NCBI RefSeq assembly: GCF_003324675.1
Contig: NZ_CP030918.1
Span: 1,710,001 to 1,742,000 of the forward strand
Direction of reading: 5' to 3'
DNA length: 32,000 bases
DNA from: Paracoccus suum
Lineage (GTDB): Bacteria; Pseudomonadota; Alphaproteobacteria; Rhodobacterales; Rhodobacteraceae
The stretch's first letter is position 1. Each line of letters starts with the position of its first letter. The translations under genes were made by a program, and so were the position numbers. The notes under the pieces are model-generated. The model searched no databases. It was not told the DNA's origin and was given only the letters and a program-made list of their open reading frames with translations. Below are positions 4,039 to 25,470 of the stretch, in pieces.

Positions 4039-4076
4039 GCGGGCGTGGCGGAATGGTAGACGCATGGGACTTAAAA
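4039..4076 (+). pseudogene. Truncated 5' half of an intronless tRNA-Leu(UAA) (acceptor 5' strand through the anticodon loop only)
   Basis: GCGGGCG-TG-GCG-GAATGGTAGA-CGC-A-TGGGA-CTTAAAA gives the acceptor strand, D-arm, 5' anticodon stem and loop with anticodon TAA. The next bases are AGTCTTTTTTCTACC, so the expected TCCCA strand, variable arm, T-arm and CCA are missing. Confidence 0.75.
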
Positions 4077-4233
4077 AGTCTTTTTTCTACCATGCTGCAA
4101 AATAGTTTGCGGAAGAGAATTGAATGGTTTTTCAATGCGCTATGAGCGCAGGGTAAGGAAGGCGAAAAAAGGCTGATTTCGTTCTAGGTGCTGCGTAGGA
4201 GCAGAGATCAAGGGCGAGAATCGGCGGCAAAGG

Positions 4234-4534
4234 GCGGACGTGGCGAAATCGGTAGACGCAGCAGACTTTAGAATTGGAGTGCCCGCGGGGAAATCCGCGG
4301 AGTAGAACCGCTCAAAGTCGGGGAACGCTAAAGGGCATCTGCCCTAAGCCAATCCCGAGCCAAGCCCCTCTTCGGGGAAGGTGTAGAGACTGGACGGGCG
4401 GCGCCTAAAGCCTTCGGGCCATGGCGAAGGGACAGTCCAGACCACGAACGCCATAAGGCGGCGGCGAAAGTCGAAGTGGTACGAAAATCTGCTTCTCTGT
4501 GAGAGTACGGGTTCGAGTCCCGTCGTCCGCACCA
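4234..4534 (+). tRNA. trnL(UAA): tRNA-Leu(UAA) interrupted by a group I intron (exon 1 4234-4268, exon 2 4484-4534)
   Basis: Joined exons fold as a class II cloverleaf. Acceptor GCGGACG/CGTCCGC. D-arm GCG-AAATCGGTAGA-CGC. Anticodon stem GCAGA/TCTGC with loop CUU+AAAA. Variable arm UCUC-UGU-GAGA. T-arm ACGGG-TTCGAGT-CCCGT. Discriminator A and an encoded CCA. Confidence 0.9.
4269..4483 (+). ncRNA. Group I self-splicing intron (IC3-like, 215 nt, no ORF) between U34 and A35 of tRNA-Leu(UAA)
   Basis: AAUCCCGAGCCAAGCC and GGAAGGUGUAGAGACUGGACGG match, from memory, the conserved core of the Azoarcus tRNA-Ile and Anabaena tRNA-Leu introns. P1 pairs ACUU|UA with UGGAGU, placing a U.G wobble at the 5' splice site. 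P2 is CCGCGG-G(GAAA)U-CCGCGG. P4 is UCGGG/CCCGA. The intron ends in G4483. Confidence 0.85.
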
Positions 4535-4872
4535 TTATCCAGCGTCACAGGGTGCCGCTGGAATCCAAGCATTAAGCGGTGGCGGATGATCTTGCATCAT
4601 AAGATCGTGTTCGGTGAGTCCGAGTCCAAAATATCGTGCGCGCCATTTGATCTTCGAACTATGAACACTACAGCCGCTGTTCCGAAGATCGAAGTGGAAC
4701 GGGCGTTAACGTTTTCGATCCTCACCCTGTGATGCAGTTCACCTAGCAACGCACCTCAAACCCCGAAATAAAATCCGCTTATGCAGCTTGCGGACGGTCC
4801 CTCTCGAATTCCTATGCAGCAGCATCCTAGAAATAGCTGCGCACTGGAGCGCCGAGGGAGCGTTCATCGCAA

Positions 4873-5034
4873 ATGGCTGGAAATAGTAGGGTCCGGAAGA
4901 ATCAGAACGAGGCGCCGCGCCCTCAGAAAGAGCCAGGGAATGGTGGGCTTGGCTTGCTGCTTGTCCTGGCGATTACCGCGATCGGCGTTGGGTATGTCGG
5001 CTACCCGCTGTCCCTCGTCTTCGGCCTGATCTAA
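4873..5034 (+). CDS. Hypothetical small membrane protein (53 aa, below the ORF-track cutoff)
   Basis: ATG..TAA ORF MAGNSRVRKNQNEAPRPQKEPGNGGLGLLLVLAITAIGVGYVGYPLSLVFGLI: a basic N-terminus followed by one TM helix. The SD is weak and distant. It lies directly upstream of another small membrane ORF. Confidence 0.25.
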   Translation: MAGNSRVRKNQNEAPRPQKEPGNGGLGLLLVLAITAIGVGYVGYPLSLVFGLI

Positions 5035-5053
5035 CGAACGATCCAGGCGTGTT

Positions 5054-5326
5054 ATGCGGTTAGACGAGCAGTCGCGAGAGCACATTGGGCGCTATGGCAT
5101 CAAGCTGGTCGTCGCTGCGGCAATCGCCTACATTCTGAAGAGCGAGAACTTCCTTGCCACATTCGCGCTGTGGACCGGCATATACGGCGTAATGGCCGTC
5201 GCTTACGCAGTTCATCGCGGCGAACGATTCGGCAAGACCAGGTTCACCTATTGGGATGAGGCTCTATGGTTGGCGGCGACGGCGTTGGGTCTCTACATTT
5301 TCAGTGGCCATCAGTTGGCCGTCTGA
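5054..5326 (+). CDS. Hypothetical membrane protein (90 aa, about 3 TM segments)
   Basis: Hydrophobic segments LVVAAAIAYIL, LATFALWTGIYGVMAVAYAV and ALWLAATALGLYIF. No recognisable family. Confidence 0.45.
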   Translation: MRLDEQSREHIGRYGIKLVVAAAIAYILKSENFLATFALWTGIYGVMAVAYAVHRGERFGKTRFTYWDEALWLAATALGLYIFSGHQLAV

Positions 5327-5344
5327 TCGGCCGCTTCTGTTGGT

Positions 5345-6169
5345 TCAAAGAAACCGTGCGGATGCGTCGCCAACGCCTGACAACTCGACCTTCAGTTCCT
5401 GACCAGGAAGGATTTGCAGCAGCATCGGGATGATCGATCCGGTTGCTACGATATCGCCGGCGCTGAGATAATTGCCTCTGGCGATCAGGTCATTCACGAG
5501 CCAGAGCGCAGAGTTGATCGGATCAACCAGCCCCTCTCCCGATGCCGACTGAAACACTGGAACGTTGTTGATCGACGCTCGCATGTCGATTCTGTCCATG
5601 GCCTCCAGGCCTGTTGGCTCATGATATTTGTCGACGATCGTCGAAACATGGAACGCATAGTCAGCAATGGCGGCCAGGTGTGGTTGCCCAGTCAGGTGAC
5701 CACGTCGCCCGACAAGACCGATAGCCGGTTGGTAGCTCAGGATCGCCTTGCAAAATTGATCGCGAGTGATGGGCCAATGGTCCGCCCCCAAGGGACCGCC
5801 TATCGTAAAGACGATTTCGCATTGTGCCCCGATGAAGCCTTGGGGAAGCCGGAACGGCCCGTGGGAGTCCTGAAGAACTGTTCCGACAGGGATCGGGCAG
5901 TAGATGGGACTGGCAAGGCCAAGCGTGCCGCGGATGGCGGGGCAAGTGCCTATCAGGGCGTAGCCTACCGCGTCATTGGCGAAGGCCGCGATTGCTGCTG
6001 ACTGCACCGCCCAGGCGTCATCCTCGCTTCGAAGCAGATCGAACGGGATATCTGAGGTAATTCCCTGCCGACGGTTTTGGCAAAGCAAGTTAGCGAGATA
6101 GTCGAGATTCTGGTCAATCATAGAAGCACACTCCCGCGCGAGAGAGGGCGCAAAGTCGTGCTCAGTCAA
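5345..6169 (-). CDS. 2-keto-4-pentenoate hydratase / 2-oxohepta-3-ene-1,7-dioate hydratase-like protein (MhpD/HpcG family)
   Basis: Pattern similar to MhpD: CEIVFTIG (compare AEIALVL), PAIGLVGRR (compare PALEVVGSR), and the C-terminal ALWLVNDLIARGNYLSAGDIVATGS (compare [25 protein letters not shown]). Confidence 0.6.
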   Translation of the reverse strand: MTEHDFAPSLARECASMIDQNLDYLANLLCQNRRQGITSDIPFDLLRSEDDAWAVQSAAIAAFANDAVGYALIGTCPAIRGTLGLASPIYCPIPVGTVLQDSHGPFRLPQGFIGAQCEIVFTIGGPLGADHWPITRDQFCKAILSYQPAIGLVGRRGHLTGQPHLAAIADYAFHVSTIVDKYHEPTGLEAMDRIDMRASINNVPVFQSASGEGLVDPINSALWLVNDLIARGNYLSAGDIVATGSIIPMLLQILPGQELKVELSGVGDASARFL

Positions 6170-6315
6170 ATAAAAATCCGACTATATAAGTACGTATATT
6201 TTTGTCAGGGCTTTTTCTTATGAAAATACTATCGCAGCGCGGCTGAGCTCCCGTCGAAATAATATGCGGCTCTATCTAGCTTGAGGGTCCCACCAAACCG
6301 GAAGGACCTGAAGGT

Positions 6316-7587
6316 ATGAAGCCGCTTAAACCGTCCCTCGCACCCGCCGCTACGGCCACGGCCGAGGCCGGTCGTCCAACAAGACCGGGGTCGGAGCGTC
6401 GGAAGACGCTTTGCCGGAGCGCGGTTGGCGCGGTCGCGATTATGGCCGGTTCGATGATGGGTCTTGGCCAGGCAGCGGCGGAACCCCTGAGCGCGCCGAG
6501 CTTTGGTGGCCCTCTGCGCCCGAACCCCGATCCGATGAGCATGGATGCGGGCCTGTTTGGTCGCCTTCATATCACCGGCCAGCTCACAGGCATCGGGAAT
6601 GCGCAGACGAACGGCATTCCCGGCGTCGATCCGCGAACGACAGATCCCCTCGTCGATATCGGCAATGCCCAAATTCAGGTGCAGACAACCGGGGCGCCTT
6701 TGACGTTCTTCGTCCAGGGCGGTGTCTACTCGCTGCCTTCTTTGGGCTCGGCCTACACCCGCGCAACCGACGTCACCGATCAGTTGTACGGGCCGGTGCC
6801 GGTTGCTTATGGCAAGCTCGAGCTGTCGCCGAATTTCTCGGTGCAGGCGGGTTTGCTGCCGACGTTGATCGGCGCGGAATCGACCTTCACCTTCCAGAAT
6901 ATGAATATCGCGCGCGGCCTGCTCTGGAACCAGGAGCCGGCGATCAGCCGCGGTGTTCAGGTGAACTATAGCAATGGACCGGTCAACGCCTCGGTGTCGG
7001 TCAATGATGGTTTCTACTCAGGGGATTACAACTGGGTATCCGGTCTCGTGTCTTATGCGGCGACGCCGTCGAGCACGATCACGCTTGTCGCCGCAGACAA
7101 CTTTGCAGAGTCCGGCAAGACCGGCGCCGCGACGCCACTGGCGCAGAACAACAGCAGCATCTTCAATGTGATCTACACCTATGTCGACGGCCCGCTGACG
7201 CTCCAGCCCTACCTGCAATACACAACGGTCCGCTCGAACAGGGACATCGGTATTGATCGCTCGGCCGAAACATTCGGCGGAGCGCTGCTGGCTCGCTATG
7301 CCATCAATGAGAATTTCTCGATCGCTGGACGTGCCGAGTACATCGCTTCAAGCGGAGGAGATTGCGGCGTCGCCGCAGACTGCGCCCCCACCAATCTGCT
7401 CTACGGGCCGAAAAGCAGGGCGTGGTCGCTGACGGTGACGCCGACCTACCAGCGCGGGATCTTCTTCGCGCGTACCGAGCTTTCGTACACCCGCATCGAT
7501 CGGGTCACCGAAGGCTACGGCTTTGGGTCCAACTTCGACAAGCGCGACCAGGTACGCGGGATGTTTGAGGCCGGGGTGCTTTTCTAG
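6316..7587 (+). CDS. Outer-membrane beta-barrel porin-like protein
   Basis: Signal-like AVGAVAIMAGSMMGLGQAAA-EP, alternating beta-strand composition rich in G/Y/N/S/T, and a terminal aromatic residue (...FEAGVLF). Confidence 0.6.
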   Translation: MKPLKPSLAPAATATAEAGRPTRPGSERRKTLCRSAVGAVAIMAGSMMGLGQAAAEPLSAPSFGGPLRPNPDPMSMDAGLFGRLHITGQLTGIGNAQTNGIPGVDPRTTDPLVDIGNAQIQVQTTGAPLTFFVQGGVYSLPSLGSAYTRATDVTDQLYGPVPVAYGKLELSPNFSVQAGLLPTLIGAESTFTFQNMNIARGLLWNQEPAISRGVQVNYSNGPVNASVSVNDGFYSGDYNWVSGLVSYAATPSSTITLVAADNFAESGKTGAATPLAQNNSSIFNVIYTYVDGPLTLQPYLQYTTVRSNRDIGIDRSAETFGGALLARYAINENFSIAGRAEYIASSGGDCGVAADCAPTNLLYGPKSRAWSLTVTPTYQRGIFFARTELSYTRIDRVTEGYGFGSNFDKRDQVRGMFEAGVLF

Positions 7588-7651
7588 GACGGGCGCGGGC
7601 GGAAATGCGGAGCCACCGGCTCCGCAAACGCACTGCGAGCTCAGGTGAAAC

Positions 7652-7960
7652 ATGGGTTTGGAACAGATCATATCGAAATTGGAGGCTCCTCAAGCCACAG
7701 CGACTGTGTATCCGGTCCTGCCCGTTCTCTGGGTCTATCGGAACTATGATGATCGCTGGACTGTGCATCTTGAAGGTGAAGACTCCGAATGGTGCCACCC
7801 GACGCGCAATGATGCGGTCGGTGCGGCAAGGCTGATAGGCGAGAGCTACGGCTGCTACCGCCTCTATCTTCAACTGACAGACGGTCGCTTCTGCCTGGAG
7901 ATGATGAACCTCAGTCGGCGGCGCGAGCCGCGTCAGATGGGGAGCGAGGGCGAAAATTGA
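7652..7960 (+). CDS. Hypothetical protein (102 aa), apparent paralog of 10106..10354
   Basis: SD-like AGGTGA upstream. Shares a D-x-R-x(0-2)-W-T-V ... DA-x(3-4)-AR core with the 82-aa ORF at 10106. Confidence 0.4.
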   Translation: MGLEQIISKLEAPQATATVYPVLPVLWVYRNYDDRWTVHLEGEDSEWCHPTRNDAVGAARLIGESYGCYRLYLQLTDGRFCLEMMNLSRRREPRQMGSEGEN

Positions 7961-8106
7961 GCCGGGCTGTACCAAGCAAGCGCCAAGTCTCCCGACACGT
8001 CTTCCGCTGCGCCGTGGAGATCATCGCTCTGGTGGTGATCGCCGGTTGCGCTGTTCTTGCTGCCGCAGGCCCCAGCATCTACCTAATGTTCAGAAATGGC
8101 GGCTGA
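7957..8106 (+). CDS. Possible translationally coupled small membrane protein (49 aa, TTG start)
   Basis: TTG 7957 overlaps the TGA 7958-7960 of the upstream ORF (ATTGA). Sequence ..VSRHVFRCAVEIIALVVIAGCAVLAAAGPSIYLMFRNGG has one TM helix. Speculative. Confidence 0.2.
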   Translation: MSRAVPSKRQVSRHVFRCAVEIIALVVIAGCAVLAAAGPSIYLMFRNGG

Positions 8107-8130
8107 ATGCAGATTTTCGGGCCGTCCTGC

Positions 8131-8538
8131 TCACCCCAGGTTGCCACGACCAAAACCGAGGTTCAGCAAACGCGAGCGACGCCGTAGATCGGAATACCTG
8201 CTTCTGATGTTTGCTGCGAGCTGTGCCGCGGTGCAGGTCGTCGCCATAGTTTTTCTGAGAGCGGAATGACACGCCCTGCGGCTCCAGATCTCCAAGCCGA
8301 CGATCCAAGGCCGGGTATCGGTGAAAGCCGTCTGGCTGCGCTGCCAGGCCTGAGGACGCAGTTGGTGATGGCTCGGGTCCTCAAGGAGCACCACATCTGG
8401 CTGGCTGTGAGGATTATCGAGGAGCGCGAAGATCAGTCGCAGTTTCGACGGCACCGCCGGCTCCGTGATCTGCTCGAAGCAAATGCCTTGCTTGAAGCGG
8501 TTCTCGAACTCGGAGCGCATCTGCAACCAACGCGGCAT
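8131..8538 (-). CDS. Hypothetical ORF, possibly a relic of a degraded gene
   Basis: 135-aa ORF. The N-terminal 60 aa have protein-like composition (MPRWLQMRSEFENRFKQGICFEQITEPAVPSKLRLIFALLDNPH). The C-terminal half is Arg/Ser-rich and looks non-coding. No family recognised. Confidence 0.2.
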   Translation of the reverse strand: MPRWLQMRSEFENRFKQGICFEQITEPAVPSKLRLIFALLDNPHSQPDVVLLEDPSHHQLRPQAWQRSQTAFTDTRPWIVGLEIWSRRACHSALRKTMATTCTAAQLAANIRSRYSDLRRRSRLLNLGFGRGNLG

Positions 8539-8726
8539 CCTTGGTCGATGGGCCGCTCGGGAGATCGTTGGCGATGTCGCGTGGCGTGGAGCGATCGAGG
8601 CAATTTACGCAGGTGCGTGGGCCGACACGACGATCTGGCCGCTGCCATGCTGATCGCATTGCTGGGCTCCCTCGATCGTCGCCAGCGCCGACCAAAAGAA
8701 CTCTCGAAACGTGGAGAAGAGGCAGC

Positions 8727-9674
8727 ATGAAACCCAGTGGCGACCCTCCGTTATTCGGCGGTCTGATGACCGCACTTGTCACCCCGTACAGGGGTGAGGC
8801 TATCGCTTTCGACGCCTTGGCGGAACTCGCCAACTGGCAGATCGACCAGGGCGTACAGGGGCTTGTCGCCTGCGGCACTACGGGCGAGGCGCCGACCCTG
8901 TCTCATCCGGAATGGGCGGCGGTGATCCGCTTGTGCGTCGAGGTCTCCAATGGCCGTGTGCCGGTGATCGCCGGCTCGGGCACCAACGACACCCGGCGTA
9001 CCGTGGAGTTGACCCGCGAGGCGGCTCGCCTTGGCGCGGATGGTGCTTTGGTCGTCACGCCTTACTATAGTCGGCCGAGCCAAGAGGGCCTGTTCCGGCA
9101 TTTCGAGAGCGTCGCGCAAGCTGCCGAGCTGCCGATCATCATCTATAACGTGCCTTCCCGGACGGCCGTCGATATCAGGATCGAAACGCTCGACCGCCTT
9201 GCGCACCTGCCCGGTCTTGTCGGCGTCAAGGACGCAAGCGGAGATCCGACGCGGGCTAGCACGATGGCCGTCCGATTCGGCGATCGTTTCACGCAGCTTT
9301 CCGGCCATGACCGATCCATGCTGGCTTTCATGGCGACTGGCGGCGACGGCGCCATTTCGGTCGTGTCGAACGTCGCCCCGATGCTGACAGCGGCGATGAT
9401 CGGCGCGGTGCGGAAGAGTGCCTATCTGGAAGCTCGGCGCATCAACGCCCATCTTTTCCCGCTGATCGAGGCGCTGGAGCTTGAAAGCAACCCATGCCCG
9501 GTCAAGTTCGCGTTGCATTGCGCGCGCGGATACTCGCCCGCCGTCCGCCTTCCGCTGGTCGAGGTCACTGAAGGCACCGCAGCAAGAATACGCGCTGCCG
9601 TGGCGGAGATCGACTCCTTGGAGATCGATACGTCTTTGGTCGCCGAGAGGTCTCTCGTCCCCCTCTCGGCCTGA
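8727..9674 (+). CDS. dapA: 4-hydroxy-tetrahydrodipicolinate synthase / DHDPS-family aldolase
   Basis: GTTGEAPTLS, YYSRPSQEG, IYNVPSRT (Tyr and Arg of the active site), and GVKDASGD (Schiff-base Lys). ATG 8727 chosen; the 8541 start of the ORF track adds a non-homologous Arg-rich extension. Confidence 0.85.
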   Translation: MKPSGDPPLFGGLMTALVTPYRGEAIAFDALAELANWQIDQGVQGLVACGTTGEAPTLSHPEWAAVIRLCVEVSNGRVPVIAGSGTNDTRRTVELTREAARLGADGALVVTPYYSRPSQEGLFRHFESVAQAAELPIIIYNVPSRTAVDIRIETLDRLAHLPGLVGVKDASGDPTRASTMAVRFGDRFTQLSGHDRSMLAFMATGGDGAISVVSNVAPMLTAAMIGAVRKSAYLEARRINAHLFPLIEALELESNPCPVKFALHCARGYSPAVRLPLVEVTEGTAARIRAAVAEIDSLEIDTSLVAERSLVPLSA

Positions 9675-9847
9675 TCGGACCGCCCTTATAAGAACAGCAT
9701 GATGCTGCTGTGTTCTCCAATGAAAATACTATGAAATCCGGCTATCCGTGAAATGGAGAACAAATCCCGACATCTTTAAATTCAACGTATCGGCAAAAGG
9801 CATCATTTGACTCGACGAGTGGAAGGGCCTGCCGATACCCAGAAAGG

Positions 9848-10051
9848 ATGTCTGCGATGTACCCTCGTGGTTACTATTTCTATGCGATGCAACAACAGAA
9901 CAAGGCCAACCCTGGGCGGACGGATGGCGAAGCCAAGGTTGCCGTGCGCTCGGATGAGCCGATGGCCGACGTTGGGATGTTCCTGCGGCTCGGAGTCGTG
10001 ATGGCCCTCGTGATTGCGGCCGTCGCCACAGTCACCGCGTTGGCTGGCTAG
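9848..10051 (+). CDS. Hypothetical small membrane-anchored protein (67 aa)
   Basis: C-terminal TM MFLRLGVVMALVIAAVATVTALAG. AAAGGA lies upstream of the start. Confidence 0.3.
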   Translation: MSAMYPRGYYFYAMQQQNKANPGRTDGEAKVAVRSDEPMADVGMFLRLGVVMALVIAAVATVTALAG

Positions 10052-10105
10052 CGCGCCAACGACGTCCACAGCTCACTCTTCAACGAACAATCAGGATCAT
10101 CCACC

Positions 10106-10354
10106 ATGGCAAGCGCCATTCAGCCGAAAGAGCCTCCCCAACCTCTGAACCATTTTTTTGTCGGCCAGGACAACCGAGGATGCTGGACCGTCCGCGATGA
10201 GCGTAACCTCGTCGGCGGCTGCTTTGTCAGCAAGGATGCGGCGATTCACTTCGCCCGTCATGAAACCAATAACGCGCCGGGGGCTGTGATCTGCATGGCC
10301 GAAAGCCAGCGCCTGAGCCTTGACCCGCTGTTTGGACGCCGGGCCGCCGCCTAG
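10106..10354 (+). CDS. Hypothetical protein (82 aa), apparent paralog of 7652..7960
   Basis: AGGA lies 9 nt upstream. Core QDNRGCWTVRDERNLVGGCFVSKDAAIHFAR. A hairpin with a T-tract follows on the same strand. Confidence 0.4.
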   Translation: MASAIQPKEPPQPLNHFFVGQDNRGCWTVRDERNLVGGCFVSKDAAIHFARHETNNAPGAVICMAESQRLSLDPLFGRRAAA

Positions 10355-10443
10355 CCGGTTGCCATCGATCCGACAGAGCCGCGTCACACTCGCTGAATTT
10401 ATCGCGACGATGGCGATGCGAAAGTAACTCTCCCAGTTAAGAT

Positions 10444-10490
10444 AAGCAAAGCTCGCCGCCTCTACCGAGTCGGCGGGCTTTTTGCTTGCC
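10444..10490 (+). terminator. Rho-independent terminator-like hairpin
   Basis: AAGCAAAGC-TCGCCGCC...GGCGGGC-TTTTTGCTT: a GC-rich stem (CCGCC/GGCGG) extended by outer AAGCAAAGC/GCTTTTTGCTT pairing, followed by a T5 run. Confidence 0.5.
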
Positions 10491-10740
10491 AATGGGCGGT
10501 TTGGCAGAAATTCCTATGGAATTTTTATGCAAGCCGCCGAAATAACTATTGGATTCCTATTTTTTGAGGCCCCGTCCTCTCTCGAACCTATATGCGGTTC
10601 GCGTCCATATTTCCGCCAAATTCCTCCTCCGGCACCCGTGCGTACGCAAGGGCGCGCTGGAAGAATTCAACCTGTGACCGGTCAGGACGATCCATCCTGG
10701 GCGGCCATTTGTACCAACAGCGGCGCCGGAGGCGAAAGCA
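10490..10740 (+). promoter_or_regulatory. Putative kdp control region (promoter and possible KdpE operator)
   Basis: AT-rich tract with the perfect inverted repeat AAATTCC-TAT-GGAATTT (10508-10524), repeated ATTCCTAT (10511 and 10553), a TTTTTATGC tract and the palindrome TGACCGGTCA (10675-10684). No TSS can be assigned from sequence alone. Confidence 0.3.
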
Positions 10741-10821
10741 ATGGATGTTCTTGTACTAGCGATAGGGTTCGGATTCTTCGCCTTGATGTTTGGATACATC
10801 AAGCTTTGCGAAAAGCTCTGA
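10741..10821 (+). CDS. Unannotated 26-aa hydrophobic peptide immediately upstream of kdpF
   Basis: GGAGG 8 nt upstream of ATG 10741. Product MDVLVLAIGFGFFALMFGYIKLCEKL is a single TM helix. TGA 10819-10821 lies 16 nt before the kdpF start. Two hairpins sit in its 3' end. Confidence 0.45.
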   Translation: MDVLVLAIGFGFFALMFGYIKLCEKL

Positions 10822-10837
10822 CCCAGGAGGCGGCAAC

Positions 10838-10927
10838 ATGATCTTGGAATATTTCCTTGGGGCAGCAGTCGCGGTGTTTATCACCGGCTACCTGCTTTAC
10901 GCCCTCGCTCGTCCCGAGCGGTTCTGA
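10838..10927 (+). CDS. kdpF: Potassium-transporting ATPase subunit F
   Basis: 29 aa, MILEYFLGAAVAVFITGYLLYALARPERF. It has the KdpF-type GYL(V/L)YAL..(P)E.F motif, AGGAGG upstream, and sits directly before kdpA. Confidence 0.85.
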   Translation: MILEYFLGAAVAVFITGYLLYALARPERF

Positions 10928-10957
10928 TCAAGGCAACAGCTCGGAAAGAAACGACCG

Positions 10958-12655
10958 ATGACAATAAATGGATGGATACAGATCCTAGTCTTTCTCGGGA
11001 TCGTCATCGCGCTGGTGAAGCCGCTCGGCGGCTACATCACGCGTGTCATGAACGGCGAGAGGACCTTCCTTTCGCCGGTTCTGGGACCCGTGGAACGCGG
11101 CCTCTATGGCATGGCCGGAACCAGTGAGAAGGAAGAGCAGCACTGGACGACCTATCTGGGCGCCATGCTGCTGTTCAACCTGGCCGGTTTCGCACTGCTT
11201 TATCTCTTGCAGCGCATCCAGGGCGGTTTGCCCTTCAATCCAGCCGGAATGGGCGCTGTAAGCGCGGATTCGTCGTTCAACACGGCGGTCAGCTTCATGA
11301 CCAACACCAACTGGCAGGGCTATGGCGGCGAAACCACCATGAGCTATCTGACACAGATGGCCGGCATCACGGTGCAGAACTTCGTGTCGGCGGCTGTGGG
11401 CGTGGCCGGGGCCATGGCGATCATTCGCGGCTTCTCTCGCGCGTCCGCCAAGACCGTCGGCAATTTCTGGGTCGATCTGACGCGGGCGACGCTCTACATC
11501 CTGATGCCGATCTGCATCGTCGGCAGCCTGGTGCTGGTGTGGCAAGGCGTTCCGCAGAACCTGAACCCCTACACCGTCGCCACGACGGTTGAAGGCGCTC
11601 AGCAGACTATCGCGCAGGGCCCTGTCGCTTCGCAGATGATCATCAAGCATCTGGGAACGAATGGCGGCGGCTTCTTCAACGCCAACTCTTCCCATCCGTT
11701 CGAGAATCCGACGGCACTGACTAACTTGATCCACATTCTGGCGATCTACTCGATCTCCTTTGCGATGCTGAACGTGTTCGGCCGTATGATCGGTAACCAG
11801 AAGCAGGGTTGGGCACTGCTTGGCGCGGTCCTCAGCATCGTTGTCGCCGGCATCAGCGTCATCTATTGGGCTGAATCCGCTGGAAACCCGCTGCTCCATG
11901 CGCTCGGCCTCGAGGGCGGCAACATGGAAGGCAAGGAGACGCGGTTCGGCATTGCGCTTTCCTCGCTCTTCGCCGTCGTAACGACGTCGGCCTCGACGGG
12001 CGCCGTCAACACTATGCATGACAGCCTCATGCCGCTTGGCGGCCTTGTGCCCCTGTTCAACATGCAGATCCCGCCGCTCGGTGGCATCGGCGCCGGTGTC
12101 TACGGCACCTTGATCTTCGCGATCCTCGCCGTCTTCATCGCCGGTCTGATGGTCGGTCGCACGCCGGAATATATCGGCAAGAAGATCGAGGCCAAGGAAG
12201 TGAAGATGAGCATCCTCGCGATGCTTGGACCGTCGCTCGCCATCTTGGCCCTGACCGCGATCGCCGTCGTTCTTCCTGTTGGCTTGTCCAGCATCCAGGA
12301 CGCTGGCCCGCATGGATTGAGCGAGGTGTTGTACGCCTTCACGTCCGGCGCCAACAACAACGGCAGCGCCTTTGCCGGTCTGAGCGCGAATACGCCCTTC
12401 TACAACATCACTATCGGTCTCGCGATGCTGATGGGGCGCTTCCTGCTCATCGTGCCGGTCCTGGCGATCGCGGGCTCGCTCGCGGCCAAGAAGAGCGTGC
12501 CGGCATCGACGGGAACACTGCCCACGACGGGACCGCTGTTCATCGGCCTTGTCGTTGGCGTGACGCTGATCGTCGGCGGCCTGACGTTCTTCCCGGTCCT
12601 GGCGCTGGGTCCGATCGTCGAGCACTTCGCCATGCTGGCGGGCCAGACGTTCTGA
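10958..12655 (+). CDS. kdpA: Potassium-transporting ATPase potassium-binding subunit A
   Basis: 565 aa polytopic protein with N-terminal [23 protein letters not shown] and [30 protein letters not shown] and [11 protein letters not shown] selectivity-filter-like motifs. Confidence 0.97.
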
Positions 12656-12663
12656 GGATCGCG

Positions 12664-12840
12664 ATGACGGCCAAATGGCTGAGATCGATCCGATTTGTCG
12701 TGAACCCTCGCTCCTGGTTTCAGAAGCGAGGGGCGGCCAGACCGCCCAGGGCATCGACGATCATTCTCGGCATGACACTGACTTTGGGGGGCGTGGTGCT
12801 CCTCGCCAAACTTATCACTGAATTGCTCGCGGCGGCGTGA
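12664..12840 (+). CDS. Candidate 58-aa tail-anchored membrane protein in the kdpA-kdpB spacer
   Basis: GAGGA 5 nt upstream of ATG 12664. Product MTAKWLRSIRFVVNPRSWFQKRGAARPPRASTIILGMTLTLGGVVLLAKLITELLAAA. It fills an otherwise unexplained 227-bp gap. The spacer could instead be structured RNA (hairpins 12705-12732 and 12732-12746). Confidence 0.35.
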   Translation: MTAKWLRSIRFVVNPRSWFQKRGAARPPRASTIILGMTLTLGGVVLLAKLITELLAAA

Positions 12841-12882
12841 CCGAGTGGTTGGCCCCCAAGAACAAACTCGCTGGAGTTTCTT

Positions 12883-14952
12883 ATGAACCAGTCCAAATCC
12901 GCGAGCATGCTGGACGCTCGCATACTTGTACCGGCCATTGGCGATGCCTTCCGGAAACTGAATCCGAAGAGCCTCGCCAAAAACCCCGTAATGTTCGTCG
13001 TCGCGGTCGTCTCGGTGCTGACGACGGTGCTGCTGTTGAAGGACATCGCGACCGGGGCCGAAAATGTCGGCTTCTCGCTGCAGATCGTGCTGTGGCTCTG
13101 GTTCACAGTGCTTTTCGCCAACTTTGCCGAAGCCGTCGCCGAAGGGCGCGGCAAGGCGCAGGCGGAATCGCTTCGGCGCACGCGCAGCGAGACCCAGGCC
13201 AAGCTGCTTTCGAACGGCGGCTCCGACTACAAAATGGTGCCCGGGGCCACGCTGAAGGTTGGTGACGTTGTTCTCGTCGAGCCCGGCGACATCATCCCCT
13301 CTGACGGCGAAGTCATCGAGGGCGTCGCGTCGGTGAACGAAGCGGCTATCACCGGCGAATCGGCCCCTGTCATCCGCGAGTCTGGTGGCGACCGCTCCGC
13401 CGTCACTGGCGGCACGCAAGTGCTCTCCGACTGGATCAAGGTCCGGATCACGGCCGCGGCTGGCTCGACCTTCATCGACAAGATGATCGCTCTCGTTGAA
13501 GGCGCCGAGCGCCAGAAAACGCCGAACGAAATCGCGCTCAATATCCTGCTTGCGGGCATGACGCTGATCTTCGTTCTGGCGGTCGTGACCATTCCGAGCT
13601 TCGCGACCTATGCGGGCGGGTATGTTCCCATCATCGTTCTGGTCGCCCTGTTCGTCACGCTGATTCCGACCACCATTGGCGCACTGCTCTCGGCCATCGG
13701 CATTGCCGGTATGGACCGGCTGGTCCGCTTCAATGTTCTGGCCATGTCCGGCCGTGCCGTTGAAGCCGCTGGCGACGTCGACACGCTGCTGCTCGACAAG
13801 ACCGGCACGATCACGCTCGGCAACCGTCAGGCGAGCGAGTTCCGGCCGATCCGGGGCGTCACCGAAAAGGAACTCGCCGATGCAGCGCAGCTTGCTTCGC
13901 TGGCCGACGAGACCCCCGAAGGCCGCTCGATCGTAGTGCTCGCCAAGGAAAAATACGGCATCCGCGCGCGCGACATGGCGAGCCTCAACGCCACCTTCGT
14001 CCCCTTCACGGCGCAGACCCGGATGAGCGGCGTCGACCTGGACGGTTCGACCATCCGCAAGGGCGCGGTCGATGCGGTTCTGAAGCACGTGGATCTCTCC
14101 ACGGTCGCGACCGGCAGCCCGCGCGCGTCCGCCGAAAGCGTTCGTGAGCTTCAGGGCATCGCCGACCAGATCGCCAAGGCAGGCGGCACGCCGCTCGCCG
14201 TGGTGAAGGATGGCCGCCTGCTCGGCGTCATCTACCTCAAGGACATCGTCAAGGGCGGCATCAAGGAACGGTTCGCCGAGCTGCGCCGCATGGGTATCCG
14301 CACGGTGATGATCACCGGCGACAACCCGATGACCGCGGCGGCCATCGCCGCCGAAGCTGGCGTCGATGACTTCCTGGCGCAGGCGACGCCGGAGAACAAG
14401 CTGGCGCTGATCCGTGAGGAGCAGGCCAAGGGCAAGCTGGTCGCCATGTGTGGTGACGGCACCAATGACGCCCCGGCGCTCGCCCAGGCGGATGTCGGCG
14501 TCGCCATGAACACCGGCACGGTCGCCGCCCGCGAGGCCGGCAACATGGTGGATCTCGACAGCGACCCGACCAAGCTGATCGAGATCGTGGAAATCGGCAA
14601 GCAGTTGCTGATGACGCGCGGCGCGCTGACGACGTTCTCGATCGCCAACGATATCGCGAAGTATTTCGCGATCATCCCGGCGATGTTCCTCGTCTTCTAT
14701 CCGCAGCTCGGCGCGCTCAACATCATGGGCCTCGCTTCGCCCGAGAGCGCGATCCTGTCGGCGATCATCTTCAACGCCCTCATCATCGTGGCGCTGATCC
14801 CGCTGTCGCTGAAAGGCGTCAAGTATCGCGCCATCGGAGCGGGTTCGCTGTTGTCCCGTAACCTCCTGATCTACGGCCTGGGCGGCATTCTCGTGCCCTT
14901 CGCCGGCATCAAACTCATCGACATGGCGATCACCGCCGTCGGTCTCGCCTAA
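12883..14952 (+). CDS. kdpB: Potassium-transporting P-type ATPase catalytic subunit B
   Basis: Near-colinear with E. coli KdpB from memory: [63 protein letters not shown]. Confidence 0.97.
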
Positions 14953-15603
<651 letters not shown>

Positions 15604-15612
15604 ATGAAGCTG

Positions 15613-15639
15613 TCAGGACGGCTATAATAGCCGTCCTGA
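15613..15639 (+). promoter_or_regulatory. Intercistronic stem-loop between kdpC and kdpD with an embedded TATAAT
   Basis: TCAGGACGGC-TATAATA-GCCGTCCTGA. The arms are perfect for 10-12 bp, the loop contains a consensus -10 hexamer (15623-15628), and no T-tract follows. Confidence 0.4.
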
Positions 15640-15661
15640 ACGTTGATCCGGAGTCAACCGA

Positions 15662-18367
15662 GTGTCTGACGACTCAATACGAGAGCAGAGCCGGCCATCG
15701 CCTGATGCATTGCTGGAAAGTGCGCAGCGGGAGACGCGGGGCCACCTCAAGATCTTTCTTGGGGCGGCGCCGGGTGTGGGCAAGACGTATGAGATGCTCA
15801 TGTCGGGCCGGGCTCAGCGGGCCGATGGCGTCGACGTGGTCATCGGGGTGGTCGAGACCCACGGGCGGGCCGAGACCGAGGCTCTGGTCGACGGGTTCGA
15901 GATCGTTCCGCGCCGCACTGTGCCGTATCGAGGGCATGTGCTCGATGAGATGAATATCGACGCAATTCTGGCGCGCAAGCCGGCGCTGGTCCTGGTGGAC
16001 GAGCTCGCCCATACCAACGCGCCGGGCAGTCGCCATCCGAAGCGCTATCTCGATGTCGAGGAACTGCTCGCCAACGGCATAGACGTCTACAGCACCCTTA
16101 ACATTCAGCACGTCGAAAGCCTCAACGACGTGGTAGCGCAGATCACACGGATCCGGGTGCGCGAGACCGTTCCGGATTCGATCATTGACCGCGCCGACGA
16201 TATCGAAATCATCGACATCACGCCGGGCGACCTGATCAAGCGCTTGAACGAGGGCAAGGTCTATCTGCCCAAAACAGCCAAGCGCGCGACGCAGAATTAT
16301 TTTTCGCCCAGCAACCTGACAGCCCTTCGTGAGTTGGCGCTGCGGCGCACAGCGCAGCGGGTCGATGACCAGTTGGTCACGCATATGCAGGCGCATGCCA
16401 TCGCCGGCCCCTGGTCGGCCGGCGAGCGCGTCCTGGTGTGCATCAACGAACGGCCCGGAGCGATGGCGCTTGTCCGCTACGGCCGCCGTCAGGCCGACCG
16501 GCTTCGTGCGCCATGGGCCGCGGTTCACGTCGAGACGAGCAAGGATGGCCGACTCTCAGAGCAGCAGAAGGACAAGATCGCCAGTGCATTGCGTCTTGCC
16601 GAGCAGCTCGGCGCCGAGGCTGTTACCCTGCCAGGCGAGAACGTTGCGCAAGAGATCCTGGCCTACGCATCGACCAACAACTATGCGCACGTCATCGTCG
16701 GCATGCCGACCTCGCCCAGGTGGCGGGAGATCTTCGCGGGCTCCGTTTCGCATGATCTGATCCGCGCCAAGACGGATGTGAGCGTGCATGTCATCTCGCC
16801 GGGCAACGGCGAGGAAACGCGATCTCCAGCGACAGTCAGCGCGCGGCCCAAACGACGAATCGACTTCGGCCACTATCTGTGGAGTTCGCTCTACGTCGCC
16901 ATGGCGCTAGGCATCGGAACGGCGCTCTCGCGCTTTCTGGACGTCCGCAACATCGCCCTCGTCTTTCTGATGGCCGTGCTGGCCTCGGCTATGGGCGGCG
17001 GCCTCTGGCCGGCGCTGTTCGCTTCCGTATTGGGCGCGCTAGTCTTCAACTTCTTTTTCCTCGAACCGCGCTACACGCTGGATATCGGCGATCCCGAGAG
17101 CGTCGTCGCCTTCGCGTTCTTTCTCGGCGTTGCGGTGATCGCCAGCAATCTTGCCGGGCGTGTTCAACGCCAGGCTGTGACAGCACGTCAGCGGGCCAAA
17201 ACGACCGAGGGCCTTTATCTGTTCAGCAAGAAGCTCGCCGGCGCCGGGACCTTGGGCGACGTTCTTTGGGCGACGGTCTATCAGATCGCCTCGATGCTTC
17301 AGGTCAGGGTCGTCGCTCTACTGCCGGAGAATGGCCGCATCGCGGTCCAGGCGGGTTTCCCGCCCGACGATACGCTCGATGACGCCGACATTGCGGCGGC
17401 CCAATGGGCCTGGGAGCATGACAAGCCTGCAGGGCGTGGAGCGGACACGCTGCCGGGTGCGAAGCGCCTCTACCTTCCCCTGAAAACCGGCAGGACACGG
17501 GTGGGCGTCATTGGTCTGGACAATGACAAGCAAGGGCCGGTTCTGACGCCCTTGGAACAGCGGCTGTTCGACTCACTGGCAGATCAGGCCGCTCTGGCGA
17601 TCGAGCGCATCCAGCTGGTCGCCGATGTCGACAATGCGCGTCTGGCCGTCGAGGCGGACAAGCTGCGCTCCGCGCTTTTGACGTCACTATCGCATGACCT
17701 CAAGACGCCTTTGGCGTCGATCCTCGGATCTGCGGGAGCGCTCAGAGACTATTCGACATCCCTGACCGATTCCGGTCGGGTCGAGTTGCTGACGACAATT
17801 GTCGAAGAGGCCGAGCGGCTGAACCGGTTCATCGCGAACCTTCTCGACATGACACGGCTGGAATCCGGCGCTGCGGCGGTGTCGCTGACGCCGCTGTTCA
17901 TCGGCGACAGCGTCGGCAGCGCCCTGCGCCGTGCCGAGAAGATATTGACTCTCCACAGGGTAGACCTTGCAGTGCCGCCCGATCTGCCGATGGTTCGGCT
18001 CGATCCGGTCCTGTTCGAACAGGTGCTGTTCAATCTGCTCGACAATGCCCGCAAATACGCACCGTCAGGGTCGCGGATCGCGCTTCGGGCGTGGGCGGAC
18101 GAGAGCCACGTCACATTGCAGGTCGTCGATGAAGGGCCCGGCATTCCGCCCGACGATCTCACCAGGATTTTCGACAGTTTCTATCGCGTCCGGAAGAAGG
18201 ACCACGTCCAGGCTGGAACCGGGCTTGGACTTTCCATCTGCAAGGGATTTGTCGAGGCGATGGGCGGAACGATTTTCGCGACCAACCGGGCCGACAGACC
18301 CGGCGCCATTTTCACGCTGCGGTTTCCGATCGGACCGGAGCCCTCGACTTTGGAAGGAAGGATATGA
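15662..18367 (+). CDS. kdpD: Sensor histidine kinase KdpD
   Basis: GTG start with GGAG 8 nt upstream. N-terminal KdpD domain with Walker A (GAAPGVGKTY), a USP-like region, 4 TM segments, a GAF-like segment, H-box LSHDLKTPL, and N/G boxes (LLDNARKY, DEGPGI, GTGLGLSICKG). Confidence 0.95.
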   Translation: MSDDSIREQSRPSPDALLESAQRETRGHLKIFLGAAPGVGKTYEMLMSGRAQRADGVDVVIGVVETHGRAETEALVDGFEIVPRRTVPYRGHVLDEMNIDAILARKPALVLVDELAHTNAPGSRHPKRYLDVEELLANGIDVYSTLNIQHVESLNDVVAQITRIRVRETVPDSIIDRADDIEIIDITPGDLIKRLNEGKVYLPKTAKRATQNYFSPSNLTALRELALRRTAQRVDDQLVTHMQAHAIAGPWSAGERVLVCINERPGAMALVRYGRRQADRLRAPWAAVHVETSKDGRLSEQQKDKIASALRLAEQLGAEAVTLPGENVAQEILAYASTNNYAHVIVGMPTSPRWREIFAGSVSHDLIRAKTDVSVHVISPGNGEETRSPATVSARPKRRIDFGHYLWSSLYVAMALGIGTALSRFLDVRNIALVFLMAVLASAMGGGLWPALFASVLGALVFNFFFLEPRYTLDIGDPESVVAFAFFLGVAVIASNLAGRVQRQAVTARQRAKTTEGLYLFSKKLAGAGTLGDVLWATVYQIASMLQVRVVALLPENGRIAVQAGFPPDDTLDDADIAAAQWAWEHDKPAGRGADTLPGAKRLYLPLKTGRTRVGVIGLDNDKQGPVLTPLEQRLFDSLADQAALAIERIQLVADVDNARLAVEADKLRSALLTSLSHDLKTPLASILGSAGALRDYSTSLTDSGRVELLTTIVEEAERLNRFIANLLDMTRLESGAAAVSLTPLFIGDSVGSALRRAEKILTLHRVDLAVPPDLPMVRLDPVLFEQVLFNLLDNARKYAPSGSRIALRAWADESHVTLQVVDEGPGIPPDDLTRIFDSFYRVRKKDHVQAGTGLGLSICKGFVEAMGGTIFATNRADRPGAIFTLRFPIGPEPSTLEGRI

Positions 18368-19059: not shown

Positions 19060-19105
19060 CCGCGCGCGCTCGTCCACGGGCGGGCGACTTAACGTGAGTA
19101 CTCTT

Positions 19106-20705: not shown

Positions 20706-20733
20706 TCTTGCCGGATCGGGGTCCGGGTCGCGA

Positions 20734-25169: not shown

Positions 25170-25172
25170 GGA

Positions 25173-25460: not shown

Positions 25461-25470
25461 GCTTGCGCCC

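Follow-up and report, generated by a model that had tools for sequence, protein, structure and literature searches.

Within the window, meaning the whole 32,000-nucleotide stretch of Paracoccus suum DNA that was analysed, the forward strand carries a tRNA-Leu(UAA) gene divided by an intron in its anticodon loop. Exon 1 (4234..4268, placed by ARAGORN on the spliced sequence) ends in C32, U33 and U34. It is followed by an ORF-less intron of 215 nt (4269..4483), identified as group I and IC3-type from Rfam model RF00028, its fold and covariation. Exon 2 (4484..4534) supplies A35, A36, A37 and A38, the 3' strand of the anticodon stem, a long variable arm, the T arm, and the 3' strand of the acceptor stem with an encoded CCA after it. 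Joining 4234-4268 to 4484-4534 gives, by ARAGORN, an 86-nt class II tRNA-Leu(taa) with the loop CUUAAAA, the ligated exons reading ...GCAGACUU up to the junction and AAAAUCUGC... beyond it. The first-pass annotation of this DNA had described such a gene, and its account of an IC3-type group I intron, whose host is a high-GC alphaproteobacterium and whose insertion point in tRNA-Leu(UAA) falls between U34 and A35, is borne out, as are the start of the intron after U34, its terminal G (4483) and its length. Splicing after U34 is the only choice that combines a top-scoring tRNA-Leu(taa) with a U before the intron and a G at its end. The position between U34 and A35 is the one that marks the trnL(UAA) introns of cyanobacteria and plastids.

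Run with default settings, ARAGORN calls no tRNA in the whole window because it does not look for introns. Its intron mode, proposed earlier as a check, returned a tRNA-Stop, Ser or Phe, since that mode assumes position 37/38 and so misplaces the splice site; the Leu call came from the spliced sequence. By the same program the intron-bearing gene is, as had been claimed, the only intact tRNA-Leu(UAA) within the window. A search found no sigma-70 consensus promoter upstream of the gene and no terminator near it. In 16 window genes UUA makes up 2 of 757 leucine codons, so the demand for tRNA-Leu(UAA) is small.

The intron does contain the core strings quoted in the first pass, a P1 with a U.G pair, a P2 capped by GAAA, and a G at its end. 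P1 occupies 4265-4280, P2 occupies 4283-4300 with its GAAA loop at 4290-4293, and P3 pairs 4308-4313 with 4396-4401. P4-P6 span 4318-4382; P5 bears only a short P5a hairpin, and reading the sequence together with the model places a receptor-like internal loop, CUAAAGG/CCUAAG, in it. P7 pairs 4386-4392 with 4433-4438, P8 (4402-4426) contains a CCUAAA/AUGG receptor-like loop, and P9 (4441-4480) consists of two hairpins, one of them GAAA-capped (4466-4469), ahead of omega-G at 4483. The minimum free energy fold returns P2, P4-P6, P7, P8, P9 and the anticodon stem, with z = -2.4. The Rfam model Intron_gpI (RF00028), also suggested earlier as a check, does match at 4259-4463, over its full length (model 1-253) and with E = 2.6e-7 in a 751-nt search, but the score of 35.5 bits lies under the gathering score of 50 and the intron therefore goes unreported at the gathering threshold. 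The Rfam seed holds zero bacterial sequences, and the cut-off taken for bacterial tRNA introns was 18-20 bits (Williams 2020, bioRxiv 10.1101/2020.01.27.920355).

Covariation was assessed across 69 aligned trnL(UAA) introns, all of them from non-cyanobacterial genomes and the window copy among them. The P1-P9 model leaves 96.3% of cells paired, against 30-44% in slid controls, and both sides change in 42 of the 67 modelled pairs; none of 500 shuffles comes up to this result. P3 covaries between CG and UA (28 and 41 sequences), and P7 between GC and AU (10 and 58 sequences). The U(-1).G9 pair at the 5' splice site occurs in the window copy and in 68 of the 69 aligned introns; omega-G holds across the comparison set by construction, because boundaries were chosen to end in G. 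All 67 modelled pairs of the window copy are standard, and it has the expected residue at every column that is invariant across the alignment. The intron is group I, with a conserved P3-P9 core and P3/P7 pseudoknot backed by covariation. It belongs to subgroup IC3, being 215 nt long and without a P5abc extension, with GAAA loops, receptor-like loops and a site in the anticodon loop. As a kind it is ordinary: the site is the classical one for trnL(UAA), and IC3 introns of this class have already been surveyed in bacteria.

Two beliefs behind the first-pass annotation are not upheld. It had held that the bacterial tRNA introns known outside cyanobacteria are those of Arg-CCU and Ile-CAU only, a view outdated by a 2020 survey that mapped 5,292 intron-split bacterial tRNA genes, with one Leu class confined to Proteobacteria (bioRxiv 10.1101/2020.01.27.920355). 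It had also regarded the present intron as an unusual case. We scanned one genome per species with an intron core pattern that requires GGTGTAGAGACT; the matches listed had no cyanobacterial sequence. Locus boundaries were rescanned with a U before the intron and a G at its end required, and a few calls, such as L119, are doubtful. Among the matches listed, at least about 68 of 103 classifiable loci are trnL(UAA) genes with the intron at U34/A35, that is, at least about 68 further species with an intron at this same site. The hosts listed include Alpha-, Beta- and Gammaproteobacteria, Acidobacteriota, Eremiobacterota and others. A gammaproteobacterial trnL(UAA) intron had reportedly been found by Vepritskiy et al. 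in 2002.

Two groups of known introns invite comparison. The cyanobacterial and plastid trnL(UAA) introns (class 'Leu.3Ug' in bioRxiv 10.1101/2020.01.27.920355; Kuhsel et al. 1990 as cited in PMC3984707) share the host tRNA, the U34/A35 site, the U.G pair at the 5' splice site, the terminal G and a small, ORF-less, IC3-type fold, the likeness being one of site and features; unlike them, the window intron is alphaproteobacterial, lies on horizontally moving DNA, and stands beside a broken intronless resident gene. The IC3 introns of Azoarcus tRNA-Ile(CAU) and of alphaproteobacterial tRNA-Arg(CCU) (Reinhold-Hurek and Shub 1992, cited in PMC4033280) have the core strings AGCCAAGC and AAGGTGTAGAGACTNGACGG in common with the window intron, together with GAAA tetraloops on P2 and P9 and receptor-like loops in P8 and P5. 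The Arg(CCU) class is listed as IC3 (bioRxiv 10.1101/2020.01.27.920355), and over about 180 nt its members in Mesorhizobium and Rhodobacter share 82-83% identity with the window intron. Both the Ile(CAU) and the Arg(CCU) introns, however, are sited after position 36, and the window intron differs in its branched P9 with two hairpins.

Just upstream, at 4039..4076 on the same strand, lies a second tRNA-Leu(UAA) sequence, noted in the first pass as a truncated copy, and real. It consists of 38 nt, covering the 5' strand of the acceptor, the D arm and the 5' strand of the anticodon stem; it keeps the full intronless loop CTTAAAA and stops exactly at the boundary of loop and stem. Its acceptor strand, GCGGGCG, does not pair with CGTCCGC at the 3' end of the full gene downstream. 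Four Paracoccus relatives show the gene order metG-arginase-intact intronless trnL(UAA)-DUF4170-kdtA-lpxK. All 38 nt of the remnant recur unchanged in the intact tRNA-Leu(UAA) found after arginase in the closest of them (L124), and 37 nt do so in the tRNA-Leu(UAA) of the others (L121-L123). The window retains metG, arginase and the 38 identical tRNA nucleotides and then diverges from the relatives; its arginase matches that of P. suum at 100% identity; beyond the tRNA half no synteny was found between the window and L121. Compared with the stub, the full gene has a different acceptor, D-loop and anticodon stem; its variable and T arms set it apart from the relatives' resident gene. On this comparison the truncated copy is the resident gene itself, cut at the anticodon loop by incoming DNA. 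This point was missed in the first pass, and the resident identity of the copy is the key to the nature of the locus.

The left end of the incoming DNA is a stretch of 157 nt (4077..4233, forward strand) in which the junction, reading AGTCTTTTTTCTACCATGC... and spanned by a GACTT/AAGTC inverted repeat, gives way to an AT-richer spacer upstream of the new tRNA gene. At about 4000, G+C drops from 0.69 to 0.55-0.60. Where the relatives have DUF4170-kdtA-lpxK, Pfam scans, G+C and synteny mark out lower-G+C DNA (4535..20950) with genes for an FAA-hydrolase-family protein, an OmpL-like porin and a DHDPS-family protein, kdpA, kdpB, kdpD, kdpE, and a LysR regulator. Next, on the reverse strand (20952..30316), are Trb-type type IV secretion (mating-pair formation) genes, namely trbI, trbG, trbF, trbL, a possible trbJ, trbE and trbB, the Pfam matches being TrbI, CagX, VirB8, TrbL, CagE_TrbE_VirB/TraG P-loop and T2SSE. 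These genes form the conjugation module of an integrative conjugative element, lying inside the inserted DNA that adjoins the tRNA gene. Neither an integrase nor a right-hand junction was found within the 32-kb window. An orphaned resident 3' half, were one present, would read ...TCCCTGGGGCG...GCCCGCACCA; regular expressions, the acceptor complement and BLAST detected no orphan tRNA-Leu 3' half in the related loci or the window.

Horizontal acquisition, raised as a possibility in the first pass, is supported for the tRNA gene and its spacer, which are 95% identical to a Bradyrhizobiaceae MAG and 85% to a Novosphingobium MAG, with flanks unmatched. The same module is 85% identical to sequence on enterobacterial plasmids, again between unrelated flanks. 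Across the window, L022, L034 and pCTX-M3 the exons do not differ at all; the spacer is kept with the tRNA in L022 (95%) and more weakly in L034 and pCTX-M3. Similarity among these ends exactly at CCA, and the genes beyond differ: a Trb element with kdp genes, arsH-ACR3, or tmrB-aac(3)-IId. The module recurs in unrelated bacteria, each time behind a truncated 5' half of host type, and the sequence of that stub varies by host, tracking host taxonomy. In at least eight independent lineages the break falls directly after CTTAAAA, within about 2 nt. A phage origin of the window module is not supported, a collection of phage records giving just three weak matches; IMG/VR contigs do hold many other intron-split trnL genes.

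A large family of tyrosine-integrase islands has this layout too. In L002, L045 and L070 the stub is separated from the intron-bearing tRNA by a tyrosine integrase gene (PF00589). By tblastn, this integrase or its remnant is directly upstream in 11 of 69 trnL-intron loci, versus 0 of 35 loci with introns in other tRNAs, among the loci listed. When integrase homologues were picked regardless of introns, five of six showed the order stub, integrase, intron-split trnL(UAA) and cargo; the sixth keeps merely a 17-nt 3' tRNA remnant. This architecture of integrase and intron-bearing tRNA is conserved. A cut host gene followed by a whole intron-split copy was seen in the window and in ten other loci (L022, L034, L002, L045, L070, L131, L132, L134, L256 and L258). 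The island tRNA of L130 and L131 is followed first by a type III restriction-modification block and then by a degraded repeat of the tRNA's own 3' part, which shows that insertion or recombination has happened again at that tRNA.

We favor a reading, with a probability of roughly 0.72, in which the foreign, intron-split tRNA-Leu(UAA) stands in for a resident gene cut by integration. Through site-specific recombination at the loop, foreign DNA would have become linked to the resident Paracoccus tRNA-Leu(UAA) precisely where the anticodon loop ends on its 3' side, leaving the first 38 nt of that gene as a dead stub, apart from the remainder. The resident 5' half ends at the loop and runs into non-tRNA sequence, so the host gene is cut and not rebuilt at the adjoining junction. 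The incoming DNA brings its own tRNA-Leu(UAA), the same isoacceptor, 157 nt inside its left end, and this carried copy most likely supplies the function lost by integration. To release the tRNA, the ribozyme would excise itself from the precursor by guanosine attack after the U.G pair of P1, followed by exon ligation at omega-G. It is probably the carriage of tRNA genes by islands, conjugative elements, plasmids and phages, and not a homing endonuclease, that moves the intron about as a passenger.

Under a different reading, which we regard as unlikely, the intron-bearing tRNA would be an accessory passenger, and a working hybrid tRNA-Leu(UAA) would be rebuilt at the far junction from an element 5' half and the resident 3' half; the extra copy would have some other use, for example in boosting the reading of UUA for lower-GC cargo or in evading a tRNA-directed defence. 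The phage tRNA arrays of IMG/VR often include an intron-split trnL(UAA) with no sign of integration at that tRNA, so mobile elements can carry the gene for other reasons, and UUA is very rare in the window genes. No far junction was found in the related loci or the window, which leaves room for such a hybrid. Against it, the carried tRNA is always the isoacceptor of the cut gene, in two unrelated classes of element and in five of the six loci picked by integrase, a rule that complementation predicts and codon supply by a passenger does not. Elements that restore a tRNA normally supply its 3' part, not a 5' part with the promoter (PMC10865867). A rebuilt hybrid in the style of archaeal pNOB8, with an element 5' half and a resident intron and 3' half, was rejected: within the full gene the two halves are each other's pairing partners, which the stub is not, and neither half agrees with the resident gene of the relatives.

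Because similarity to L022, L034 and pCTX-M3 ends at CCA, with different genes beyond, the Trb element may have entered separately, integrating in the ordinary way next to the 3' end of the new tRNA gene, and would then not be what brought that gene in. A small element made up of the junction, the spacer and the intron-bearing tRNA, with a body that has since been lost or lies farther off, would have cut the resident gene earlier. The restriction-modification block before a decayed tRNA 3' part in L130 and L131 would fit such a history, which we consider a real, if lesser, possibility. Against it, neither the 3' end of the tRNA nor any other attachment-like sequence is repeated in the 27 kb that follow the tRNA, and cargo that varies next to a conserved element end is just as usual within one family of elements. 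A local tandem duplication might instead be read into the two tRNA-Leu(UAA)-like sequences, which share an orientation and are separated by 157 nt: one copy would have decayed while the other acquired an intron through reverse splicing or homing, with no mobile element involved. This is already contradicted by the differences of the full gene from the stub and from the relatives' resident gene, by the 85-95% identity of gene and spacer to loci in other orders with unmatched flanks, and by the absence from the window of the genes that follow the tRNA in the relatives; the intron also lacks a homing endonuclease ORF, and we give the idea next to no credence. It is very unlikely, finally, that the intron is a dead relic in a pseudogene, with UUA read by another tRNA. 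The Rfam score below gathering and the missing consensus promoter would agree with decay, but the fully standard pairing, the residues kept at invariant columns, the U.G pair and omega-G would not. Among four dispersed, island-borne copies, substitutions avoid paired positions (7 of 122 vary, against 18 of 93 unpaired) or are compensated: five of six variable pairs remain paired, one of them through a change from C-G to U-A.

A close parallel to complementation of a cut tRNA gene comes from actinobacteriophages, in which tRNA-dependent lysogeny was shown experimentally (Guerrero-Bustamante and Hatfull 2024, PMC10865867). In these phages a tyrosine integrase acts at a very short common core at the anticodon region, and an essential single-copy tRNA is cut and not rebuilt. 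The present cases differ in that the elements, which occur in Proteobacteria and Acidobacteriota, are genomic islands and conjugative elements and not phages, and in that tRNA-Leu(UAA) is the gene targeted. The arrangement is known here from sequence, and the gene that would complement carries its group I intron exactly where recombination would take place. A second parallel is the tRNA-Thr locus of Caldiarchaeum subterraneum (Sugahara et al. 2012, PMC3293823), with a tRNA 5' fragment, an integrase and an intron-containing tRNA of the same kind. Alike, too, is the idea put forward there of an intron that arrives with a mobile element and then keeps the site from being recombined again, and attachment-site introns were proposed to protect tRNA genes from integration (Randau and Soll, in the form cited in PMC3293823). 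Caldiarchaeum differs in being an archaeon with protein-spliced bulge-helix-bulge introns and a rebuilt hybrid tRNA, unlike the wholly foreign gene in the window. We suggest tentatively, and with well under even confidence, that the intron is retained as a shield, splitting the anticodon-loop DNA that the element's own integrase recombines; with its attachment sequence split, the carried replacement could not be a target for its own or related elements, and self-splicing of the RNA would still yield a working tRNA.

A literature search aimed at this arrangement returned no account of elements in Proteobacteria or Acidobacteriota that cut the trnL(UAA) loop and bring an intron-split copy, and the arrangement appears to be undescribed. 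Our favored reading would extend to islands and conjugative elements a strategy, disruption followed by complementation, proven only in actinophages (2024). It also suggests a reason for the persistence of the intron, namely that it interrupts a recombination site. Should the shield be true, it would give a bacterial group I intron a functional role and lend direct bacterial support to the archaeal idea that tRNA introns stem from integrating elements.

With ARAGORN finding no tRNA in the window and Rfam scoring below threshold, similar genomes seem to be without tRNA-Leu(UAA). The module lies unannotated beside aac(3)-IId in 636 of 5,426 complete E. coli genomes and, if the shield idea is true, about 12% of such genomes would carry an unannotated ribozyme gene of this kind next to that resistance gene. 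It adjoins aac(3)-IId, again unannotated, in 1,292 plasmid records. Many clinical gentamicin-resistance plasmids thus carry the module. More than 1,000 clinical plasmid records combine this ribozyme-tRNA gene with aac(3)-IId and tmrB, which offers a clue to the origin of the resistance region.

Direct reading of positions 3700-5100 places the two exons of a tRNA-Leu(UAA) gene at 4234-4268 and 4484-4534 on the + strand, exactly as the first-pass annotation had proposed. Spliced, they form an 86-nt RNA that ARAGORN identifies as tRNA-Leu(taa), with a long variable arm, the loop CUUAAAA in the anticodon arm and an encoded CCA. By default, ARAGORN calls no tRNA in the entire 32-kb window, and no Rfam family matches at gathering thresholds. 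Under permissive thresholds over 3950-4700, the full Intron_gpI model (RF00028), named beforehand as the check on the proposed group I intron, aligns to 4259-4463 with E = 2.6e-7, although its 35.5 bits fall short of the gathering score of 50. Standard tools (default ARAGORN, Rfam at gathering) overlook this gene and, because they find none in 1-32000, routine annotation probably shows no tRNA-Leu(UAA) at the locus. No consensus promoter was detected near the gene. Of the 757 leucine codons counted in 16 window genes, 2 are UUA, so the tRNA would be rarely needed.

A P1-P9 model of the intron was built by hand, intron position n being window coordinate 4268+n. P1 pairs exon ACUU plus intron UA with UGGAGU, placing U(-1).G9 at the splice site; P2 (15-21 with 26-32) is closed by GAAA; P3 joins 40-45 with 128-133, and P4 joins 50-55 with 85-90. 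P5/P5a and P6/P6a are included. P7 joins 118 and 120-124 with 165-170, with A119 bulged; P8 joins 134-137 with 155-158 and 142-144 with 149-151 around the internal loop CCUAAA/AUGG; P9 (173-177 with 208-212) is branched, with two hairpins, one of them GAAA-capped; and G215 is the omega-G. A single-sequence MFE fold independently recovers P2, P4-P6, P7, P8, P9 and the anticodon stem. When 69 trnL(UAA) introns from genomes other than cyanobacterial ones were aligned with MAFFT and the model was placed on the alignment, 96.3% of cells were paired and 42 of 67 pairs had changed on both sides; none of 500 shuffles reached any measure, and slid controls were 30-44% paired. A separate count, made on an independent alignment, is in agreement. 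This is a real fold, intact in the window copy, where all 67 modelled pairs are standard.

The core pattern AGCCAAGC-N4-34-AAGGTGTAGAGACTNGACGG, scanned over a one-genome-per-species collection, gave at least 120 matches, whose splice sites were refined by a U before the intron, a G at its end and the highest-scoring spliced tRNA. Among the matches listed, 68 of 103 classifiable loci besides the window are trnL(UAA) genes split after U34. The others include Arg(CCU) (12) and Arg(UCU) (2), CAU anticodons with the intron after position 36 (Azoarcus type, 9) or of fMet type (6), and a few other tRNAs; hosts among these matches include Alpha-, Beta- and Gammaproteobacteria, Acidobacteriota, Eremiobacterota, Nitrospirota and Chloroflexota. 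A 2020 preprint had surveyed 80,413 bacterial genomes and mapped 5,292 intron-split tRNA genes in them; the class name Leu.3Ug comes from it, and it reports the class Leu.3Cg from Proteobacteria only (bioRxiv 10.1101/2020.01.27.920355). The first-pass annotation called a proteobacterial trnL(UAA) intron unusual, as older reviews still do (PMC4033280). That view is outdated, because the scan, with at least 68 further loci, and the preprint agree: the intron truly belongs to a familiar kind and is neither a rarity nor a novelty among Proteobacteria. What the present finding adds is the context of the intron-split tRNA, not the intron itself.

In the window, metG and arginase (3077-3997; 100% identical to Paracoccus suum, the next matches being other Paracoccus species) precede the tRNA region, near the start of which, about position 4000, G+C drops from 0.69 to 0.55-0.60. 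Four Paracoccus relatives have metG, arginase, an intact intronless tRNA-Leu(UAA), DUF4170, kdtA and lpxK in that order. Window positions 4039-4076 equal the first 38 nt of the closest relative's tRNA gene, through the last base of the loop CTTAAAA, and match the first 37 nt in the other three; AGTCTTTTTT... then replaces the 3' strand of the anticodon stem. The resident 3' half and DUF4170-kdtA-lpxK are absent from the following 27.5 kb. The neighbouring intronless copy, already noted as truncated, is thus the resident gene, severed exactly where its anticodon loop ends. The full gene is self-consistent (acceptor strands GCGGACG/CGTCCGC and anticodon-stem strands GCAGA/UCUGC pair), and it differs both from this stub (GCGGGCG, UGGGA) and from the relatives' resident 3' half. 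As the stub is the start of the relatives' gene and the full gene matches neither part of it, the intron-bearing gene arrived with the inserted DNA. The junction, 4066-4086, reads GACTTAAAAAGTCTTTTTT, in which a 5-bp inverted repeat, GACTT/AAGTC, spans resident and incoming DNA, with a T run after it; this could represent a core-type integrase site or a weak terminator, and a terminator scan did not call it.

The junction, a 157-nt spacer (4077-4233) and the intron-split gene form a module that recurs in unrelated places, which bears out the suggestion of horizontal acquisition. By BLAST against the fetched loci, window 4038-4534 is 95% identical to a Bradyrhizobiaceae MAG chromosome (L022) and 85% identical to a Novosphingobium MAG (L034), and the rest of the window matches neither. 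The similar stretch runs from the truncated tRNA half precisely to the full gene's CCA; exons are identical across loci, stubs vary by host, and the genes 3' of the module differ by locus, being arsH and an ACR3-type arsenite carrier in L022. Among four dispersed copies, 7 of 122 paired intron positions vary vs 18 of 93 unpaired ones, and of six variable pairs five still pair, one of them by a double change from C-G to U-A, a pattern suggestive of selection on the intron. Three loci in high-GC surroundings (L003, Rhodovulum steppense; L094; L114) have an exon 1 identical to that of the window and introns 86-90% identical. Upstream of them there is neither a stub nor a conserved spacer; this tRNA/intron type may have its chromosomal home at such loci, or their stubs may have been lost after replacement. 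A proteobacterial MAG (L013) has two facing intron-split tRNA-Leu(UAA) genes within 800 nt, at 5516-5826 (+) and about 5990-6290 (-), one with an exon 1 identical to the window's.

Further stubs upstream of trnL-intron loci are all intronless and all end just past the loop. The stub lies about 195 nt upstream of the intron-split tRNA in the window, L022 and L034; about 1,510 nt upstream in Phenylobacterium (L002), Bradyrhizobium lablabi (L045) and Sphingomonadales (L070); 83 nt upstream in L005 and L066; and 227 nt upstream in L082. In the class of about 1,510 nt, the gap encodes a phage-integrase-family protein of about 430 aa on the + strand. Among the matches listed, 11 of 69 trnL-intron loci have this integrase or a C-terminal remnant of it upstream by tblastn, as against none of 35 loci with introns in other tRNAs. 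It ends 70-160 nt 5' of the tRNA in ten of these 11 loci; in L112, the remaining one, tblastn matches no more than a fragment of 51 residues some 1.9 kb away on the 5' side. The family comprises 6,761 proteins at E < 1e-20, in Bradyrhizobium, Afipia, Rhodopseudomonas, Bryobacteraceae and Terriglobia. Six homologues were picked solely as integrases and their loci then inspected: five have stub, integrase, intron-split trnL(UAA) and cargo in succession, and the sixth, L257, is decayed, with 17 nt of the tRNA-Leu 3' end left after the integrase. There (9800-11210) TCCCTCCGCCCGCACCA directly follows the integrase stop, IS66 genes lie nearby, and the host stub has the Leu-CAA-like loop CTCAAAA. Stub types track the host (GCGGACG...AGGGA in Bradyrhizobiaceae, GCCCGGG...ACGGA in Acidobacteriota, GCGGGCG...UGGGA in Paracoccus), whereas the intron-split genes do not track host taxonomy.

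These tRNA-linked islands look like defence islands: their cargo is mostly defence genes (AAA ATPase with S8 peptidase, Abi, type III and MmeI-like restriction-modification), with one instance of a TraG/VirD4 coupling protein. Defence-type genes dominate 3' of the island tRNA in L132, L133, L130, L131, L134, L135, L045, L256 and L258, where Abi_C, ResIII with N6_N4 methylase, DUF499/DUF1156 and a very large AAA_16 protein also occur.

The break falls at the same place in at least eight independent lineages, which points to recombination that is site-specific for the anticodon loop and does not rebuild the gene. An element would integrate in this way at the host trnL(UAA), leaving it broken, and its own intron-split tRNA-Leu(UAA) would complement the destroyed gene. 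Complementation is likely by analogy with tRNA-dependent lysogeny, established experimentally in mycobacteriophages, where an attP/attB core of about 10 bp is used, the host tRNA is destroyed and viable lysogens need a phage tRNA of the same isotype (PMC10865867); here, too, a host tRNA is cut, and the carried tRNA is always the same isoacceptor. Unlike the mycobacteriophage case, the replacement contains an intron, between U34 and A35. Because the intron splits the recombined sequence there, the replacement gene has no contiguous CTTAAAA core in DNA, and it is an attractive, unproven inference that the intron shields its site from integration. An archaeal parallel to this layout is found in Caldiarchaeum, where a fragment of tRNA-Thr accompanies an integrase and a tRNA-Thr with an intron; the proposal that introns within attachment sites prevent integration is cited there (PMC3293823). 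The context appears to be an element-borne, intron-split replacement for an integration-broken host tRNA gene, in a widespread arrangement of which we found no description from bacteria in the literature searched.

Neither an integrase nor a right junction lies within the 32-kb window, and no orphan tRNA-Leu 3' half was found in it or in related loci. After the tRNA region come about 800 nt (4535-5345) with no convincing gene in the ORF listing and G+C of about 0.55, then an FAA-hydrolase-family gene, a porin, a DHDPS-family gene, kdpA, kdpB, kdpD, kdpE and a LysR regulator, and farther on trbI, trbG, trbF, trbL, a possible trbJ, trbE and trbB on the - strand. Since similarity across module-bearing loci stops at the CCA, this Trb element may postdate the module, having inserted 3' of the new tRNA instead of carrying it in. 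L130 and L131 exemplify such secondary events at an island tRNA. Each has a second, decayed copy 4.7 kb 3' of the intact one (L131, about 6340-6535; L130, about 16150-16335), in which exon 2 is intact and two-thirds of the intron, from its 3' side, remain, carrying core mutations and a partial deletion of P7; a type III restriction-modification block lies between the copies, indicating further insertion or recombination at the island-borne tRNA.

The module has also reached clinical plasmids: 1,292 PLSDB records carry it between a hypothetical gene and tmrB-aac(3)-IId (hosts including E. coli, 493; Klebsiella, 365; Salmonella, 117; Acinetobacter, 79), for example pCTX-M3 (NC_004464.2 61656-62121; L126 5001-5466) and likewise L127, L128 and L129. 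It is 85% identical across 94% of the 496-nt query, with identical exons and the junction GGACTTAAAAAGTC kept. It is present in 636 of 5,426 complete E. coli genomes, and no annotated feature lies beneath it in those genomes or plasmid records. This suggests that an island of the same family was the source of the gentamicin-resistance region, which would have been captured from its tRNA-proximal end. A 2014 review placed all known phage group I introns in protein-coding genes (PMC3984707). The IC3 core pattern has at least 120 matches in IMG/VR viral contigs (L136-L255; for example L208 6532-6578, L143, L157 and L193), and among those listed, 65 of 85 classifiable contigs have trnL(UAA) split after U34. 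Several of the genes checked lie inside phage tRNA arrays, with 22 tRNAs in L208, and a single exon-1 sequence is repeated in more than 10 contigs.
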